A stretch of 64,000 nt of DNA from Escherichia phage vB_EcoM_KWBSE43-6, in the sequence record NC_048186.1; one strand, given 5' to 3'. This document shows positions 21,416 to 27,539 of the stretch, in pieces. The translations under genes were made by a program, and so were the position numbers. The first letter of the stretch is position 1; each line of letters starts with the position of its first letter. The notes under the pieces were generated by a model, which was given only the letters and a program-made list of their open reading frames with translations, ran no database searches and was not told the origin of the DNA.

Positions 21416-21934
21416 TTAGATGGTGTTCATATACAATGGTACTACTTGCTCAGCGATGAGAACGATCTCATTAATAGTAAAATCACCACCATAAGAATAC
21501 AACTTCATCTGCGCCCCGTTGGTTGCGAGGTTCCCTGCTTTGTCTACACTGAAAAATGTAATAAAGGAAAGTGTATCCGGTGGGGGTACGCTAGAATCAC
21601 GGCTTTTAGATAACTGGTTACCAGTAGAACCGACAAAATCCAATAGCATTGTCCTGTTGGCAGTAGAACCTGACCATGATCCGATTATATTCACTTTAAC
21701 AGGTAATATAGAGTCTACAGGAAATGCATGGAATTTATGATCAGAAAGTTTGAAGAAAGGAGATAAACCAGTTACAGATGCAGGATGGGGAGTTTTACCA
21801 TCCAATAAAGTCAACAAATCTACTCCGGTACTCCCGGCAGGTAAAGATGCAGTAAGCCCAGAAAATCTTACTTCTACTTTTATACGATGTGTCTGCAGCA
21901 TATTTCCCAAATATGGAGAAATTAAAATAGCCAT
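21416..21934 (-). CDS. hypothetical protein
   Basis: 172-aa ORF. Confidence 0.5.
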   Translation of the reverse strand: MAILISPYLGNMLQTHRIKVEVRFSGLTASLPAGSTGVDLLTLLDGKTPHPASVTGLSPFFKLSDHKFHAFPVDSILPVKVNIIGSWSGSTANRTMLLDFVGSTGNQLSKSRDSSVPPPDTLSFITFFSVDKAGNLATNGAQMKLYSYGGDFTINEIVLIAEQVVPLYMNTI

Positions 21935-21942
21935 AATTCCTC

Positions 21943-22179
21943 CTACGAAACTATTATAACAGAGTTAGCAGACGTTCCTTTAACCCAGCCAATGGTTGGT
22001 GGGGTAAGGACGATGATATTACCCTGATAAATGATATGAGATGCCGCCCCGGAAACGGGCGTCGTGGGGTTGTCGCACAAATACACGGAACCTTGAGTCA
22101 CTTGTAGTGTTTTCAAAGATGTGCCGTCAGAGACTTGAGTCCATGTACTCGCATCTAGAACTATTTTGGCAGTAGCCAT
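21943..22179 (-). CDS. hypothetical small protein
   Basis: ORF track 21943..22356 overlaps a tRNA; true start MATAKIV at 22179 with GGAGG SD. Confidence 0.5.
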   Translation of the reverse strand: MATAKIVLDASTWTQVSDGTSLKTLQVTQGSVYLCDNPTTPVSGAASHIIYQGNIIVLTPPTIGWVKGTSANSVIIVS

Positions 22180-22230
22180 AATACCCTCCAAATACAAGAC
22201 AATGGTATTGTTATTTATACCAACAAAAAA

Positions 22231-22256
22231 GAAGCCCGGTATCCTTACCGGGCTTT
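22231..22256 (-). terminator. rho-independent terminator downstream of tRNA cluster
   Basis: agcccgg...ccgggct stem followed by T-run on minus strand. Confidence 0.55.
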
Positions 22257-22307
22257 GATAAAGACCAAAATCACATGGCCTATTCGCAGTTATGCTACAC
22301 AGATTAT

Positions 22308-22381
22308 TGGAAGGAGCACCAGGATTCGAACCTGAGATCATGGGATCAAAGCCCATTGCCTTACCGCTTGGCTATGCTCCT
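22308..22381 (-). tRNA. tRNA-Gln (anticodon UUG), CCA encoded
   Basis: Manual cloverleaf: acceptor AGGAGCA/TGCTCCT, D-loop GCCAAGCGGTAAGGC, anticodon loop CUUUGAU, T-loop TTCGAAT. Confidence 0.8.
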
Positions 22382-22541
22382 AAAATTGGGAGAGGTACGC
22401 CAGAGTCGAACTGGAAACAGTATTTGACTGGATTATTTGCATTTAGGCCAGTCATCCCCTGTCTTTTGATCTCCACCCCATCTGCGGCCTGGTGCCGGAT
22501 GCACCCAACATTCAGGTTGCGGGAGAACATACCCCTTAATT

Positions 22542-22625
22542 TGGTGAGGGAGGATGGATTCGAACCACCGAAGCCGAAACACCTGATTTACAGTCAGGCC
22601 CATTTGACCACTCTGGTACTCCCCC
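22542..22625 (-). tRNA. tRNA-Tyr (anticodon GUA), long variable arm, CCA encoded
   Basis: Manual fold: anticodon arm CCTGA-CUGUAAA-TCAGG, long variable arm, T-loop TTCGAAT. Confidence 0.75.
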
Positions 22626-23043
22626 GAATTTGGACGGGCTTCTCACCCGATTGTGCATTTGATCTGCCGTAGCCCAACTCCCCGCGTCGTAACGCCGATT
22701 GGTTAACTGGCACCAGTGCCTTCTGGTGTGATCCCTTGGAACTTTACAGGCTTCGCGCCAAACCATTTCTGGTAGTTGGGGCATCGTTTCCGATGTAGGG
22801 TTCCCCCATTTTAACACAGCTGGCTGCAACGCTTACTGTGTTTGTATCAGAGTGTCCGGTGTAGCATTCCGTGAGGTGCGCACTACTGTAGCCTCTACAC
22901 TCTGAATTTGTATGAAGTGGGAATCACTCTCCTGGGTGTCTGTATCCTGCGGCCTTACATTGGCAGCTATCGCGCGATTCGCACTTCCGAAGGCGCTTTG
23001 AGACACTCCACTTCAATTTGATGATGCCACACCACGTCTGGTT

Positions 23044-23114
23044 TGTTGAATCCAGGATTCGAACCTGGGATACCTGCCTTACAGGCGAGTCGCTTTGCCT
23101 CAGCGTTATTCAAC
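23044..23114 (-). tRNA. tRNA, identity uncertain (anticodon loop CUGUAAG, possibly GUA; one mismatch in anticodon stem)
   Basis: Acceptor GTTGAAT/ATTCAAC, T-arm CCAGG-TTCGAAT-CCTGG; anticodon stem imperfect, could be a pseudo-tRNA. Confidence 0.5.
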
Positions 23115-23239
23115 TGGCACCAATTTGGTGGGCGTTACTTTCGTCGGTTTCAGATTCCGTTCGGCTATTGGACGTTGTTCCAAAGAACTTGTCGGTCGCG
23201 TACTTCGTGCTTACTCGCTTTCGTTTCACACCCATTGTC

Positions 23240-23315
23240 TGGCGATGGTGGCAGGACTTGAACCTGCGACATATGGATTAACAGTCCACCGTTCTACCGA
23301 CTGAACTACACCATC
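23240..23315 (-). tRNA. tRNA-Asn (anticodon GUU), CCA encoded
   Basis: Acceptor GATGGTG/CACCATC, D-arm GTTCAGTCGGTAGAAC, anticodon loop CUGUUAA, T-loop TTCAAGT. Confidence 0.8.
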
Positions 23316-23322
23316 ATCAATT

Positions 23323-23409
23323 TGGCGGAAAGTCTGAGATTCGAACTCAGGGGGCATTACACCCGACGATTTTCAAGACCGTTGCCTTAAACCGCTCGGC
23401 CAACTTTCC
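23323..23409 (-). tRNA. tRNA-Ser (anticodon UGA), long variable arm, CCA encoded
   Basis: Acceptor GGAAAGT/ACTTTCC, D-loop GCCGAGCGGTTTAAGGC, anticodon loop CUUGAAA, variable arm CGGGTGTAATGCCCC. Confidence 0.8.
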
Positions 23410-23415
23410 TTTGTA

Positions 23416-23501
23416 TGGTGGAAGATACAGGATTCGAACCTGTGCAACCTTTCGGTTGTACACCTTAGCAGGGTGCTGCAATACCGCTCTGCCAATCTTC
23501 C
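23416..23501 (-). tRNA. tRNA-Ser (anticodon GCU), long variable arm, CCA encoded
   Basis: Acceptor GGAAGAT/ATCTTCC, anticodon loop CUGCUAA, long variable arm, T-loop TTCGAAT. Confidence 0.75.
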
Positions 23502-23692
23502 TATTTATTCGCTTCTATGGCTCGAAGTTGCTTCTCAGCGTCTTCTTTGGATTCATGTGTTCCCAAAACCTTTGTTTTGGTATGGTCCAACACAACCCAA
23601 TGATCACCACGCTTTTCAACAAACTCAACAATTTCTTTGTTGTCAGTCGCAAGACCATCCCATTCAGTTAAGAACTCACCGAACGTTTTCAT
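23501..23692 (-). CDS. small hypothetical protein embedded in tRNA cluster
   Basis: ORF track 23501..23719 (non-ATG start); likely start MMKTFGEF at 23692; protein-like composition. Confidence 0.5.
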   Translation of the reverse strand: MKTFGEFLTEWDGLATDNKEIVEFVEKRGDHWVVLDHTKTKVLGTHESKEDAEKQLRAIEANK

Positions 23693-23919
23693 CATACTCA
23701 CCAATCGTTTATTGAACAACTGGTTTATTTAGGTGCTCCCGAGGCGGTATTTTAATCCCGCGATCCCATCTCGCCTGCCGTAGACCAGAGCTTGTTGGCA
23801 GTCCAACAAATTTGGCGGGGTCTGAGGATTTTCACCTCACCTGCTGGATTGGCCTCCAGCCGTTCTCTCTGGGGACTCGCCGTCCGGACAGCTATCCCTT
23901 AAACTATCGCCCCTTAATA

Positions 23920-23995
23920 TGGTGATCCTGATTGGTTTTGAACCAATGACCAATCGATTATGAGTCGACTGCTCTAACCACTGAGCTACAGGACC
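23920..23995 (-). tRNA. tRNA-Met/Ile-type (anticodon CAU), CCA encoded
   Basis: Acceptor GGTCCTG/CAGGATC, D-arm GCTCAGTGGTTAGAGC, anticodon loop CUCAUAA, T-loop TTCAAAA. Confidence 0.75.
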
Positions 23996-24007
23996 AAAAT
24001 CTTTTAA

Positions 24008-24118
24008 TTCATATTGTCGTGGACAATACCAAGACAGAGGGTTGGAATCTCTTATCCTATAGCGACCCATAAACCGTTTGATCAGTCCGGCCTAAAGGAT
24101 TACCCACGACAATATGAA
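24008..24118 (-). ncRNA. structured element: 15-bp perfect inverted repeat enclosing about 80 nt
   Basis: ttcatattgtcgtgg (24008-24022) is the reverse complement of ccacgacaatatgaa (24104-24118); no ORF; shares 11-mer ATCTCTTATCC with the element at 25175-25295. Confidence 0.35.
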
Positions 24119-25174
24119 CTGTTTACTCTTTGGTCTGGGGGAGGATTTACCTCCCCCATTCCTCCCGGTTTGGGCAGCGATCTCTCACTCAACCAGGGCG
24201 CCGGCAAATTTTAGATCAATTCTACAGGTTTGTAACCGCGCTGTCGCCAAGTCATGTTGCTTCTCCTATCATTATTTGACCGCACATATGGCGGGCCGGG
24301 TTGTAATAGTTGAGTTGTGAACAACCAAGGGCTGCTAGACCTTTTATCCCGTTTGCGCATGATCAGTTCATGCGAGTCTTATCAAGCACCTTACGGCAAC
24401 TCTTCTGGATGTCATCGCCCTGCTGCCAGGCTCATCCCAGGAGTTTATTTTTCCAGGGCTTTCCACTTACAAGTCTTAACCAGACCGGGATACGGGCTTG
24501 TAAGATCGGGTTGGACACAACTTTGAGGACACTGACGACGTCTACTAGTCACCCATAACTGATATTCGGATGCCAGTATCCTCAAAGTTGCAACCAATGT
24601 CGCAACTCGCAGCTTCCATACAGAAGCAACTTGTCCTCTAACGCTCGGACCAAACGAGGCTGGCTGGTTGATTCAGAGCCGCTGGTTGCTCCAGCAAGCA
24701 TGGGTTGATAGCCCGGCAACATAGAATCACCCAAAGATGAAGAACACTCAGTGGTACAAGCCAGGGATACCAATTTCAGGTCCTTTGCGAGTTCTTTAAT
24801 GCTCTTCATTTTGTGAACTTGAGAATACTATACCTGTCTCGGGTTTCCCCTTAGTACGGTCACTCATTGTTCGTCACACCAGGGAGCTACCCTTGATGGC
24901 CCGCTTATTTTGAGTTGTTCCTGGTGCCCACCAGTGTCCGGAATGTATAGGCATCGCAGTCTACAAGGCACTGATCTTTTTCGCCCAGCGCTCTCTCAAG
25001 TTCACAAATCGAAGTGCCCTGACTCAACAGTTGTGGCCCAACATATTGTTATCGTCTACCGGGCTGGCCGTCCACTTTGTAGATCAACCTTTGGGTTTAA
25101 GATAAATTGTCAAGGCACTTCGATTTGGGTGCCCTTCACCTGCCAGGGATCAGGGCTGATGGCAAGACTTCGCT

Positions 25175-25295
25175 CACATCTGGGAGGTATCTCTTATCCG
25201 GATTCGAACCGGATTTATCCTGGCAGAGGAATCTAACCCCTTCACCTTGTCTTCACAAGGACGGTCAACAGACCTCAAGATACCTCCCAGATGTG
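25175..25295 (-). ncRNA. structured element: 18-bp perfect inverted repeat enclosing a T-arm-like hairpin (tRNA-like fragment)
   Basis: cacatctgggaggtatct (25175-25192) vs agatacctcccagatgtg (25278-25295); internal ATCCGG-TTCGAAT-CCGGAT on the minus strand; no canonical cloverleaf. Confidence 0.35.
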
Positions 25296-25299
25296 GAGC

Positions 25300-25390
25300 C
25301 GTTTTAGGGAGTCGAACCCAAATGCTCGGCCAGCGCTGACCTTACATCCCACCTGACTTAGGCAACCCACCTCTGCTTACTCAGGAGCTT
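25300..25390 (-). ncRNA. tRNA-like fragment or tRNA pseudogene (T-arm GGG-TTCGACT-CCC, 3-prime ...GGCTCCA)
   Basis: T-loop motif present but no matching 5-prime acceptor strand found by hand. Confidence 0.25.
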
Positions 25391-25419
25391 ATCCCCTTTA
25401 GACAGTCAGATATAACGGC

Positions 25420-25510
25420 TTTGGGATTGGAGGGAGGAATCGAACCTCCCAGGGTGCTCCCCAAATCAGGGGCTGGCTCACGCCTGAAACCTGTTTAAGC
25501 ACCTGCTCCG
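25420..25510 (-). ncRNA. tRNA-like fragment or tRNA pseudogene (T-arm GGAGG-TTCGATT-CCTCC followed by ...CCCA)
   Basis: T-arm plus CCA-like end, but acceptor and anticodon arms not canonical. Confidence 0.25.
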
Positions 25511-25829
25511 CTCATTGTCGGCGGGAGATTATTAATCACACCCTCCCGCCTATTTTAGTGCGCCGAATTTTGTTATGAGGAATCGGAAGACCTCACTGAC
25601 TTATAGGCTATTACGCCGCCATCAGAACTACATCATCGTTTGCATTTATCTTTGTGGTCAGTTTCTAAAAACCCGCAAAGTCGCGCACAACGAGAACGAA
25701 AACCTGTTTGAGCACAAGACGCCATGTCCTGGATCACATCGAAGTGTTTGTCTAATGCCCAAACAGCTTTTCGCTTCAGTGGGTTAACTATACTTTGTTA
25801 ACCCTTATTGACAAAACTTTAAATTATTT

Positions 25830-25925
25830 TGCGGTGGTCGGAATCGAACCGACAGCTGGTTGAGCGCAGAGTCTTAGGAGAAGGTGCTAACCCGACCATC
25901 ACCAGCAAGCGTCGCACGGGACGCC
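25830..25925 (-). ncRNA. tRNA-like fragment or tRNA pseudogene (T-arm GTCGG-TTCGATT-CCGAC)
   Basis: T-arm present; remainder does not fold into a cloverleaf by hand. Confidence 0.25.
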
Positions 25926-26431
25926 TATCCTCGTCTGCCTATGTTCGCACACCATTCCTGTGCGTTCACCGCAATCTAATTTACCGGAACTTACGCATCC
26001 AGCCTCGCCCTGTTGGCGCTCCTAGAATCCGGGAAGACAGTAGGAACAATTATGTTACCAACAGGAAACCTTTGTGTTGCCCTTTGACGCAACATTATGA
26101 ACCCTCTTTAGAAGACTCATAATGTTGTCGGTGTGATGAGGATTACCAGCCCTCGACCTTCCCATCGTGCGGTGTCGACTCGCCGCCGGGATGCTCTCGT
26201 TCCTCTCCTGTAGATCGATATCAGGCAACCAACAGTGGTAACTTTCTGAGCTAATCACACTTTCAACAGGGAGTTTCGTTCTCCGACGGTCAGTGCGTCC
26301 ACTAACACCAGCAGGGTTACTGCGCTGCCTCTATTCACACAAGCCCCTGAGACTAGGGATTAACTGGTTTCGGGTTCAAGCCTACTCCCACTGTGCTGTT
26401 TCCCTTGAAATTTTATGATACTGCAACACGG

Positions 26432-26605
26432 CTAATTTGAAAAGTCCTCTCCTCTTGAGCAACAGGACCTGAAATCCTGCGGCGAACCTCTGCTCAAAAC
26501 CCGGTGCGCTATCGAAGGCGCTTTGCCAGAGTAAACATCGGGTGTTCCTAGGAGAGTGAAGGCCATCCCGATGATGAGGATAAGGAGTAACGCTATGATT
26601 ATCAT
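26432..26605 (-). CDS. small hydrophobic membrane peptide, 57 aa, not in ORF track
   Basis: Manual translation MIIIALLLILIIGMAFTLLGTPDVYSGKAPS...; strong SD GGGAGGG 7 nt upstream of ATG. Confidence 0.45.
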   Translation of the reverse strand: MIIIALLLILIIGMAFTLLGTPDVYSGKAPSIAHRVLSRGSPQDFRSCCSRGEDFSN

Positions 26606-26662
26606 ACTGTTCCCTCCCTTCCATGCAACTTACTTTACTGTAATTCTGTATTGAATAAAGCG

Positions 26663-27232
26663 TTATTTTACCACAGAAAACTTCACAACCTTCTCTAGGA
26701 TAAACACATATTCCTGAGCAGCTGAATTCGACATATAATGCGTAGACGGAATAGAATGTGAATTCGTTGTTTCGCCCAGATTAACGCGGTCACACCAGCC
26801 ATTGATGGCATTACCGTAGAAGCCGATGATCGCAACGAAGTAGATGCGCTGGCTTTCTGGTTCCAGAACATAGTTGATCGTGAACGCAGTGTCCGTGCGG
26901 ACGGCTTCCAGTTTGATCCCAATACGACATTCCGGCATGTTGGGACGAACATATAAATGACGGAAGCGGTCGCGGCGGGCGGTGGAAGATTGTTCCAGTT
27001 CGTTGCGGAACTCACTCGTGACGTCGATGTTAAATGAAAAGGTGTTGTGTTTCATATCGGAACGAGCAAGGGAAACCGCATTGTCGATAACGCGACGGAA
27101 ATTTACCCCTTTATTTGTCAGGAGTTTAACTTCCTCAGCAATTGTCGTCAAAGAAATTTTGGTGGCTTGTTGTCCTTCATATTTTTCTAACAAAGGAATG
27201 ACGTGTTTCATAACTGCGGTGTTAATGTGCAT
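26663..27232 (-). CDS. hypothetical protein
   Basis: ORF track 26663..27271; likely start MHINTAV at 27232 with GAGGA SD. Confidence 0.55.
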   Translation of the reverse strand: MHINTAVMKHVIPLLEKYEGQQATKISLTTIAEEVKLLTNKGVNFRRVIDNAVSLARSDMKHNTFSFNIDVTSEFRNELEQSSTARRDRFRHLYVRPNMPECRIGIKLEAVRTDTAFTINYVLEPESQRIYFVAIIGFYGNAINGWCDRVNLGETTNSHSIPSTHYMSNSAAQEYVFILEKVVKFSVVK

Positions 27233-27539
27233 AATAAGATCCTCTTGTAGAATTGAAATAAACGCCATCATTATAATAGAACGATTGTTATTGAATATTG
27301 GTCTCTAAATTACAGGAGTGTTTTATTAATAGGCAGAAACTACTTTTCTAACACATCTCTAGACTGTATGCTAACGCTGTGCCCTTCGAGTTGTGAGTGT
27401 CAACGAACAACGAGAAGCAGCCTCCCTGGCTGTGGAAGGGTGCCAGCCCGCACAGGGCGGTCTTACGAGCGAAGCGAGTTGATTAATATATTTGATAATA
27501 ACGCGCGCGAGAGTAAATTCCTTTCTCTGTCTTCAACAG

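Follow-up and report, generated by a model that had tools for sequence, protein, structure and literature searches.

A tRNA gene array closes an island of conserved structured RNAs, including a tmRNA-like RNA, in Escherichia phage vB_EcoM_KWBSE43-6

Introduction

In the genome of Escherichia phage vB_EcoM_KWBSE43-6 (NC_048186.1), transfer RNA (tRNA) genes are arranged in an array with long spacers, and the question raised by this locus is whether the array consists of tRNA genes only or belongs to a larger set of small RNAs. We analysed a stretch of 64,000 nucleotides (nt) of this genome, called the window below. At 95% identity to Klebsiella phages of Taipeivirus, a genus of the Ackermannviridae, it represents a Klebsiella phage of that genus. 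A preliminary description of the window had placed seven tRNA genes, one small protein gene and possible further small RNAs at positions 22308-23995. All features of the window given below are encoded on the minus strand. Our results indicate with high probability that the tRNA array is genuine and that it ends an island of conserved structured RNAs, one of which resembles transfer-messenger RNA (tmRNA). The array is ordinary, but the island around it is highly interesting. About 1.5 kb upstream of the coordinates first noted, still within the island, is the most remarkable small RNA of the locus. A proposal that this tmRNA-like RNA docks on the host tmRNA is weighed separately and is held with less confidence.

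The seven tRNA genes

In the window ARAGORN called exactly seven tRNA genes, which occupy the minus strand from 22308 to 23995. The same seven scored above the gathering score of the Rfam tRNA model (RF00005, 29 bits), and a score above this threshold together with an independent ARAGORN call was taken to define a tRNA gene. The number, strand, span and anticodons given in the preliminary description were matched by the ARAGORN calls, and the check proposed there, ARAGORN on the reverse strand, called all seven loci. The genes are tRNA-Gln(UUG) (22308-22381; 63.6 bits), a class II tRNA-Tyr(GUA) with a long variable arm (22542-22625; 58.4 bits), an atypical tRNA with the anticodon GUA (23044-23114; 41.5 bits, the lowest of the seven), tRNA-Asn(GUU) (23240-23315; 76.4 bits), tRNA-Ser(UGA) (23323-23409; 53.9 bits), tRNA-Ser(GCU) (23416-23501; 60.6 bits) and a tRNA with the anticodon CAU (23920-23995; 70.9 bits). 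By sequence reading, CCA is encoded in all of them except the atypical one (6/7), in agreement with the earlier statement that most do so. The spacers between tRNA genes measure 160, 418, 125 and 418 nt, and the last of these contains a small open reading frame (ORF).

The atypical gene had been listed as an uncertain GUA-like tRNA. It passes the covariance model and is therefore a tRNA by that measure, with A73, the anticodon GUA and a cloverleaf whose minimum free energy (MFE) is -25.5 (z -2.8). Bacterial tRNA-Tyr has a class II arm, an intact anticodon stem, A73 and CCA. The tRNA at 23044-23114 has a variable loop of 5 nt instead of the long arm, a C-A mismatch in the anticodon stem that Infernal flags as a non-canonical pair, and a 3' end that reads AUUCAACA followed by AAC instead of CCA. 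Its tyrosine identity is doubtful. The CAU tRNA had been left as Met or Ile, and it is the Ile side that held. Its best matches in E. coli are genes annotated as tRNA-Ile (84% identity over 76/76 nt), and its orthologue in the relative K5lambda5 is also annotated as tRNA-Ile. Since it is closest to the tRNA-Ile genes of E. coli, it is most likely tRNA-Ile2; by this similarity it is probably the AUA-reading tRNA of the lysidine type rather than an AUG-reading one, the modification by TilS being a prediction only.

The small protein gene proposed inside the array (23501-23695, or to 23692; 63-64 amino acids) is supported by a match to phrog_3684 (E = 1.8e-24). Its stop codon abuts tRNA-Ser(GCU), and it is conserved in relatives at 71-98% nucleotide identity (71-84% in other genera).

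The tRNA set varies among close relatives, in which Trp, Arg, Ile and Asp genes have been gained or lost, so these genes act as exchangeable cassettes. Because relatives annotate these tRNAs already, the array as such is already known; by itself it is ordinary and adds nothing new. In this phage, whose GC content is 46%, AUA makes up 16% of Ile codons, CAA makes up 44% of Gln codons, and UCU and UCA together account for 50% of Ser codons. This usage fits the usual role of codon supplementation, the host values being general knowledge, and the tRNAs would supplement the host for codons that the phage uses heavily (AUA, CAA, UCN). It is also conceivable, if on balance unlikely, that the tRNAs, including the atypical GUA tRNA, are kept chiefly as replacements or decoys for host tRNAs cut by the anticodon nucleases of defence systems, and not for supplementation. 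The small set with its swaps of Trp, Arg, Ile and Asp genes between close relatives points in this direction, as do the two GUA genes, one of them non-canonical. Known anticodon nucleases, colicin E5 among them, attack tRNAs for Tyr and Asn. Against a role chiefly in defence stands the codon usage, which matches supplementation, and the two roles could coexist.

A tmRNA-like RNA upstream of the array

A permissive Rfam scan placed weak matches of two tmRNA models, permuted and alpha, at 25559-25875 (25.5 bits; gathering score 47). Consistent matches of the tmRNA models below threshold, at 22-31 bits, were obtained in the window and in six other phages. The core of the tmRNA-like RNA lies at 25520-25703. 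It comprises, from its 5' end, a domain antisense to host tmRNA (25656-25703), a linker with U at -5 and A at -4 (25644-25655), a tag ORF (25608-25643), a pseudoknot (25561-25595) and a hairpin with the loop GGUGUGAUUAAUAAU (25520-25550).

The resume context AUAAAU is followed by the frame GCA AAC GAU GAU GUA GUU CUG AUG GCG GCG UAA UAG, which encodes the tag ANDDVVLMAA. The hallmarks of a tmRNA resume site are all present, namely U-5 and A-4, a short tag ORF with a hydrophobic or Ala-Ala end, and an in-frame stop. Twenty-three distinct tag sequences were found across loci, each of exactly 10 codons plus stop. Variation affects all ten third codon positions, compared with five of the ten first and five of the ten second positions. 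For several tags there are 2-4 synonymous versions; the tag ANDNTFLAVA, for example, differs by three synonymous changes between Taipeivirus and Kuttervirus. At the level of the aligned sequences, such third-position and synonymous variation is the signature of a translated frame under coding selection.

The structure is conserved as well. Over 22 variants, 87.6% of the pairs of the pseudoknot and hairpin were formed; the corresponding value was 68% for shuffles and 33-52% for slid controls. Double changes affected 13 pairs. The H-type pseudoknot downstream of the tag, of the kind that flanks the tag in tmRNA, shows compensatory changes in both stems. The small hairpin at the stop codons was only 65% paired, and an upstream pseudoknot 1 was not established.

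No tRNA-like domain was found by eye, by ARAGORN or with the standard, permuted, alpha and beta tmRNA models of Rfam. ARAGORN called no tmRNA in the window, and the Rfam tmRNA models scored 10-31 bits in seven phages (the phage of the window and six others), below gathering scores of at least 47. Pairing of the 5' end with hairpin-CACCA motifs on the 3' side, tried by eye, was inconsistent between phages and was dropped. A T-loop motif was absent from the 700 nt upstream and 900 nt downstream in 13 of the 50 distinct loci, and elsewhere its distance varies. We infer that the 5' end lies 2-8 nt before the conserved motif GUUUUCGU, from promoters in SUSP2 and Sa179lw and from the 3' ends of upstream tRNAs in two loci (L116 and L125). 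In one contig (L028, 3170-3390) a core of about 165 nt stands alone between two copies of the terminator-like sequence CATAACTCGAG...CTCTATGGTATGTTTA; the duplicated flanks suggest that the element was inserted as a unit. Because the tRNA-like domain, the defining feature of tmRNA with an acceptor stem bearing G3:U70, a T-arm and a 3' CCA in the same gene, is not present, the RNA is not a tmRNA and resembles the mRNA-like half only. By analogy, binding of SmpB, charging by alanyl-tRNA synthetase and use on stalled ribosomes are putative.

Distribution of the tmRNA-like RNA

A region of 481 nt matched 734 phage records. Carriers of the tmRNA-like RNA include all genera of Ackermannviridae, Felix-O1-like phages (inside the tRNA array), the N4-like Gamaleyavirus, siphophage Sa179lw, and P1 and P7. 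Lambdoid contigs carry it too, just after a sequence that we take to be the lambda tR' late terminator. The RNA was also found in 656 of 5426 complete E. coli genomes (about 12%), mostly on P1-like plasmids. A second scan of IMG/VR with a 14-mer of the hairpin loop returned mostly chance matches.

Among the records listed in detail, none had an RNA feature at the tmRNA-like gene; the annotation was either "none" or small hypothetical-protein coding sequences (CDSs). In the curated P1 record (NC_005856, 68791-69348) the gene is unannotated and lies between the dicF-like region with its terminator and trnA. This position is in the leader of the C1-repressed ban operon, so the gene should be expressed on induction. 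The tmRNA-like RNA is in no Rfam family, and a literature search, which did not cover the 79 phage entries of the tmRNA database, found no description of the RNA or its tags. HNH homing endonuclease genes were observed in or beside the tmRNA-like gene and the tRNA array of several relatives (for example L008, 6658-7128, and L012 and L013); because of such insertions the blast match to the tmRNA-like region is split into pieces.

Possible docking on the host tmRNA

The 5' domain suggests how an RNA with a tag and no tRNA-like domain might be used. Its conserved motif UAGUUUUCGUC is the exact reverse complement of nt 96-106 of E. coli ssrA (GACGAAAACUA, tag codons 3-6). Further 5' blocks (GCGAC and CUAUUUUU) are complementary to the ssrA resume codon and the linker upstream of it, and longer variants also match the last strand of the host pseudoknot 1. 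RNAduplex, RNAcofold and a permissive Smith-Waterman alignment, the last with a high null, were not discriminating and were therefore replaced by a blastn-like score. With this score, antisense local alignments to E. coli ssrA reached 20-36 (z 2.5-10) and always fell on nt 68-107; for most of 30 variants, 0-3 of 1000 shuffles reached the observed score. Exact antisense runs were 8-11 nt long. Sense alignments of the same domain, which covered homology to the D-loop/P2a region of tmRNA, scored 12-20, which is background level. The complementarity to host tmRNA was significant, confined to one site and specific in orientation, the properties by which an antisense RNA was defined here.

A low-GC lineage (L063, L116, L125) with the tag ANDDSFEVARLAA carries UAUUGUUCGUC, an 11-nt exact antisense of GACGAACAAUA, which represents tag codons of the Pasteurellaceae-type ssrA (ANDEQYALAA); these codons were confirmed in 56 genomes. 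The lineage scored 33-35 on the Pasteurellaceae-type ssrA compared with 25 on that of E. coli, and the enteric variants showed the reverse preference. It belongs to a distant N4-like phage; blastn gave no match beyond tRNAs, and no copy was found in the Pasteurellaceae loci fetched. In short variants the phage resume codon lies 14-16 nt past the duplex end that faces pseudoknot 1, compared with a native spacing of 11 nt between pseudoknot 1 and G90, and U-5 and A-4 are retained ahead of the phage resume codon.

From the antisense statistics, the match of the low-GC lineage to the Pasteurellaceae-type ssrA and the spacing of the resume codon, we propose that the tmRNA-like RNA docks on the host tmRNA, masks its tag region and serves as a substitute template. 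The proposal is tentative, and we rate its chances as somewhat short of even. The 5' domain would base-pair with nt ~68/80-107 of the host tmRNA (the linker with U85 and A86, the resume codon at G90 and tag codons 1-6). The host tag template would be covered by this pairing, with the phage resume codon placed near the native position. Ribosomes rescued by host tmRNA-SmpB would then add a phage tag, such as ANDDVVLMAA or ANDNTFLAVA, instead of ANDENYALAA.

Several points weigh against docking and, in part, against the description of the island as a whole. All RNA ends in the island are inferred from sequence. The RNAduplex and RNAcofold energies do not separate real from shuffled sequences for several variants (shuffles reach -30 to -47 kcal/mol), and because the variants are homologous, the alignment statistics are not independent tests. 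The exact antisense run in the lineage of the window itself is only 8 nt, E. coli ssrA served as a proxy for Klebsiella ssrA, and no host of the low-GC lineage emerged from blastn or from the Pasteurellaceae loci fetched. One part of the complementarity, that to the last (3') strand of host pseudoknot 1, might be explained by a common origin of pseudoknot strands. Docking would face competition from a possible but weak intramolecular helix (CUUUG/CAAAG), and a heteroduplex of 25-40 bp might simply be cut by RNase III. Finally, many loci have T-arm modules 135-235 nt downstream of the resume codon, and an acceptor partner encoded by the phage is possible.

Some of these observations also bear on two other explanations of the tmRNA-like RNA. 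The first is that it is an antisense inhibitor or decoy only, which blocks the host tag template or triggers its cleavage and whose own tag is never translated. The antisense match of the 5' domain to ssrA nt 68-107 and the lack of a tRNA-like domain would both be expected of such an RNA, and a phage tmRNA that consists of the tRNA domain only, that of DS6A, is reported to inhibit host tmRNA (PMC11915505). A pure inhibitor, however, needs no mimic of the resume site (AUAAAU before GCA), and it has no need either of an exact frame of 10 codons with a fixed stop position in 23 variants, of the third-position variation or of the synonymous versions of tags. We regard this explanation as improbable.

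The second explanation is that the RNA is the coding piece of a two-piece tmRNA of the phage, whose acceptor, charged with alanine, is a neighbouring module with T-arm and CCA. Candidates include the module directly after the core (25422-25503), which has a hairpin, a T-arm and UCCAAUC-CCA; T1 (25820-25983), with a 17-bp closing stem and a T-arm beside its 3' strand that is matched by the tmRNA models; and T2 (25294-25420), a tRNA-like unit of 127 nt recognised by sequence reading, with the closing stem AGCCGUU/AACGGCU, a T-arm and CCA. In the window, the core has T-arm modules at 146 nt on its upstream side and at 198 nt on its downstream side, similar distances occur in many relatives, and the match of the permuted-tmRNA model of Rfam includes the upstream T-arm. 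The hairpin and T-arm of the module at 25422-25503 show compensatory changes between Taipeivirus and Kuttervirus. This module is nonetheless absent from four Ackermannviridae relatives (L017, L018, L019 and L035), and by eye neither a partner strand for UCCAAUC nor a G3:U70 pair was seen. The 13 loci of 50 without a T-loop motif nearby, the inconsistent distances elsewhere and the minimal unit of about 165 nt in L028 also count against a two-piece tmRNA, which we consider quite improbable. As for the fold of the other two candidates, T2 is 95-99% identical in 9 loci, and neither T1 nor T2 is significant against shuffles by its fold alone.

A direct repeat, GUGCU(C/U)AAACAGGUUU, was noted at 25700-25715, immediately ahead of the 5' motif in the tmRNA-like RNA, and a second time at 25487-25502, in the hairpin of the T-arm module.

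Conserved RNAs in the spacers of the array

The preliminary description had suggested that the long spacers hold additional small RNAs as in the T4 tRNA region. This was borne out in spacers 3 and 4, each of which contains a conserved RNA of about 100-110 nt. The spacer-3 RNA (23126-23233, 108 nt; GGGUGU...(A/G)C(G/A)CCC-A-CCA) was recognised by its conservation and closing stem. It is purine-rich, with several C-GAAA-G motifs, and its closing stem is kept with one-sided changes only. It was found at full length in 218 phage records with 81-100% identity. The spacer-4 RNA (23813-23913, 101 nt) has a three-armed, cloverleaf-like fold with a closing stem and a ...GCCA end; four of its 27 pairs have compensatory changes, and it occurs in 185 phage records with 87-100% identity. 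Neither RNA is ever annotated as RNA in these records, some of which put hypothetical-protein CDSs over them. Both are better conserved across genera than the adjoining protein gene. The spacer-4 RNA occupies positions of tRNA cassettes: its neighbours differ between relatives, and one contig has a true tRNA there instead.

Spacer 2 contains a conserved hairpin (22848-22904; z -2.1) with the closing stem CAGAGUGU/ACACUCUG. This hairpin, of 57-70 nt, is 96-99% identical in loci of Agtrevirus, Kuttervirus and Limestonevirus and 86% identical in an N4-like contig (L027), the latter match hinting that unrelated phages have exchanged RNA modules.

Even below its threshold the tRNA model matches nothing in the spacers, so they are not decayed tRNA genes. 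It is very improbable that the spacers serve processing alone, or are remnants of tRNA genes, and yield no RNA products of their own: the sliding-window MFE z-scores are ordinary for most spacers (they are unremarkable even for tRNAs), spacer 1 has no homologue in the fetched loci and no Rfam family except tRNA reached its gathering score in the spacers, but the spacer-3 and spacer-4 RNAs are 81-100% identical across genera in 185-218 genomes, compared with 71-84% for the adjoining gene in other genera, and the spacer-4 fold has compensatory changes.

Layout of the RNA island

The island extends over about 4.4 kb (22225-26662), is almost free of ORFs and has the tRNA array at its promoter-distal, downstream end. 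Its position is the same in every genus of Ackermannviridae, between the tail-needle gene group and the phrog_3788 gene beside baseplate wedge gp6, and every relative examined has 2.7-3.3 kb without annotation between the CAU tRNA and the next protein gene. The small ORF of the array is the only credible protein gene within the island. ORFs of 75 and 80 amino acids were rejected as genes on the basis that neither has a PHROG match; the 75-residue ORF is also not conserved across genera. The 80-residue ORF (26382-26624) has a hydrophobic N-terminus, and its DNA is 72-76% conserved in other genera, which may reflect either coding or RNA. The GenBank records of several close relatives have 9-14 hypothetical-protein CDSs over the island, one with the label "RNA ligase". 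These are probably over-calls on non-coding RNA.

A promoter-like site, TTGTCA-16-TATAGT (25787-25814), lies upstream of the tmRNA-like RNA and is the best sigma-70-like match in the region (10/12). An intrinsic terminator (22225-22255), with the stem AAGCCCGGTA/TACCGGGCTT followed by a T run, closes the island; no other strong terminator-like site was seen on this strand within 21900-27400, and the MFE z-score of the terminator-region window 22260-22141 was -7.0. Promoter-like site and terminator bracket much of the island. Leftward transcription of the island would start at the promoter at 25814-25787, with further promoters probable, and run to the terminator at 22255-22232; host tRNA-processing enzymes would then cut the transcript into stable RNAs. 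CCAAATT follows two tRNAs and three non-tRNA units, and five of its 18 sites in the window fall on the minus strand within 1.3 kb (22538-23815).

Long stems and T-arm motifs (GGTTCGAWTCC) recur across the island. The element T3 (25175-25295; MFE -60.9, z -7.4) looks like a tRNA mimic, with a 19-bp closing stem and four hairpins, two of them T-arm-like with T-loop-like heptaloops; it occurs in 7 phage records, and covariation of its stem was seen by eye in EspM4VN and not formally counted. Three further elements are a 19-bp closing stem with a three-way junction (25005-25127; z -7.1), a hairpin with a stem of about 20 bp (24511-24597; z -7.3) and a long-stem structure just upstream of the CAU tRNA (24008-24118; MFE -40.6, z -4.1). 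T3 and these three elements are far more stable than their shuffles, and the three may be RNase III processing sites or independent RNAs. The tmRNA-like transcript has a 5' leader hairpin (25704-25767; z -2.1), found in Ackermannviridae only, with compensatory changes (GGGCA/UGCUC compared with GAGUCCU/AGGACUC).

The Rfam family STnc100 (RF02076) reached its gathering score (47 bits) in the RNA island of Klebsiella phage UPM 2146, and weaker matches were seen in the islands of P1 and St11Ph5 (loci L002, 5917-6130 on the minus strand; L004, 2891-3011; L007, 2696-2779). Rfam did not find it in the window.

Significance

Ackermannviridae are candidates for phage therapy, and they carry several kb of conserved structured RNA genes that annotation pipelines skip or overwrite with spurious small ORFs. 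The importance of the tmRNA-like gene is not limited to Ackermannviridae: the model phage P1 has a copy, as do Felix-O1-like, N4-like and lambdoid phages and about 12% of complete E. coli genomes. If docking is true, this would be the first virus that rewrites the output of bacterial ribosome rescue, by means of a surrogate template in trans and not by encoding or inhibiting the system. It would open the study of how tmRNA chooses its resume codon, of the role of the SsrA degron in infection and of the diversion of tagged proteins from ClpXP.

Comparison with known systems

In the tRNA cluster of phage T4, tRNA genes are interspersed with the stable RNAs species 1 and 2 (RNA C and D), whose function is unknown, in one processed transcript. 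The locus described here resembles it in the genomic arrangement of tRNAs with other small RNAs and differs from it in that the island is larger and includes a tmRNA-like gene. Among 50,697 phage records searched by blastn, no T4-like record matched the spacer RNAs; almost all matches were to enterobacterial phages, and every one whose taxonomy was checked belonged to Ackermannviridae. The spacer RNAs and the long-stem and T-arm elements can be assigned to phage stable RNAs as a general class, of which they are undescribed representatives. T3, with its long closing stem capped by a tRNA-like head of several hairpins with T-loop-like loops, is similar to the Y-RNA-like tRNA mimics (YrlA) of Salmonella and mycobacteriophages; Rfam YrlA (RF02553) gave no match at E up to 10 in 23900-27400.

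The tmRNA-like RNA shares with the one-piece bacterial tmRNA (SsrA) the U at -5, the A at -4 and the resume codon GCA. Its tags start with A-N-D, end with a hydrophobic residue and A-A or with V-A, and have 10 codons, the length of the enterobacterial ANDENYALAA. A putative small hairpin is situated at the stop codons, with an H-type pseudoknot directly after them. Unlike SsrA, the phage RNA has no acceptor stem, D-loop analogue, T-arm, CCA or pseudoknot 1 of its own. Its core is about 165-185 nt compared with 363 nt, its 5' end is antisense to the host molecule, and it is below the Rfam thresholds and not called by ARAGORN.

Mycobacteriophage DS6A encodes a tmRNA without CDS, which keeps the tRNA-like domain and has no tag (PMC11915505). 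Both would be partial tmRNAs encoded by a phage and directed at host trans-translation, as is proposed here for the tmRNA-like RNA. The two are mirror images, since the RNA of the window keeps the tag and has no tRNA-like domain.

The two-piece, circularly permuted tmRNAs of Alphaproteobacteria, Betaproteobacteria and cyanobacteria have a separate coding chain that is held to the tRNA-like part by base pairing, as is proposed here between phage and host RNA, and among the Rfam models the permuted, alpha and beta ones match the phage RNA best, though below threshold. In two-piece tmRNAs, however, a single gene gives rise to both pieces, and the 5' strand of the acceptor belongs to the coding piece, whereas the proposed partner of the phage RNA would be the complete tmRNA of the host, paired at its tag region. 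Of the known systems, the tmRNA-like RNA is closest to the coding piece of these two-piece tmRNAs.

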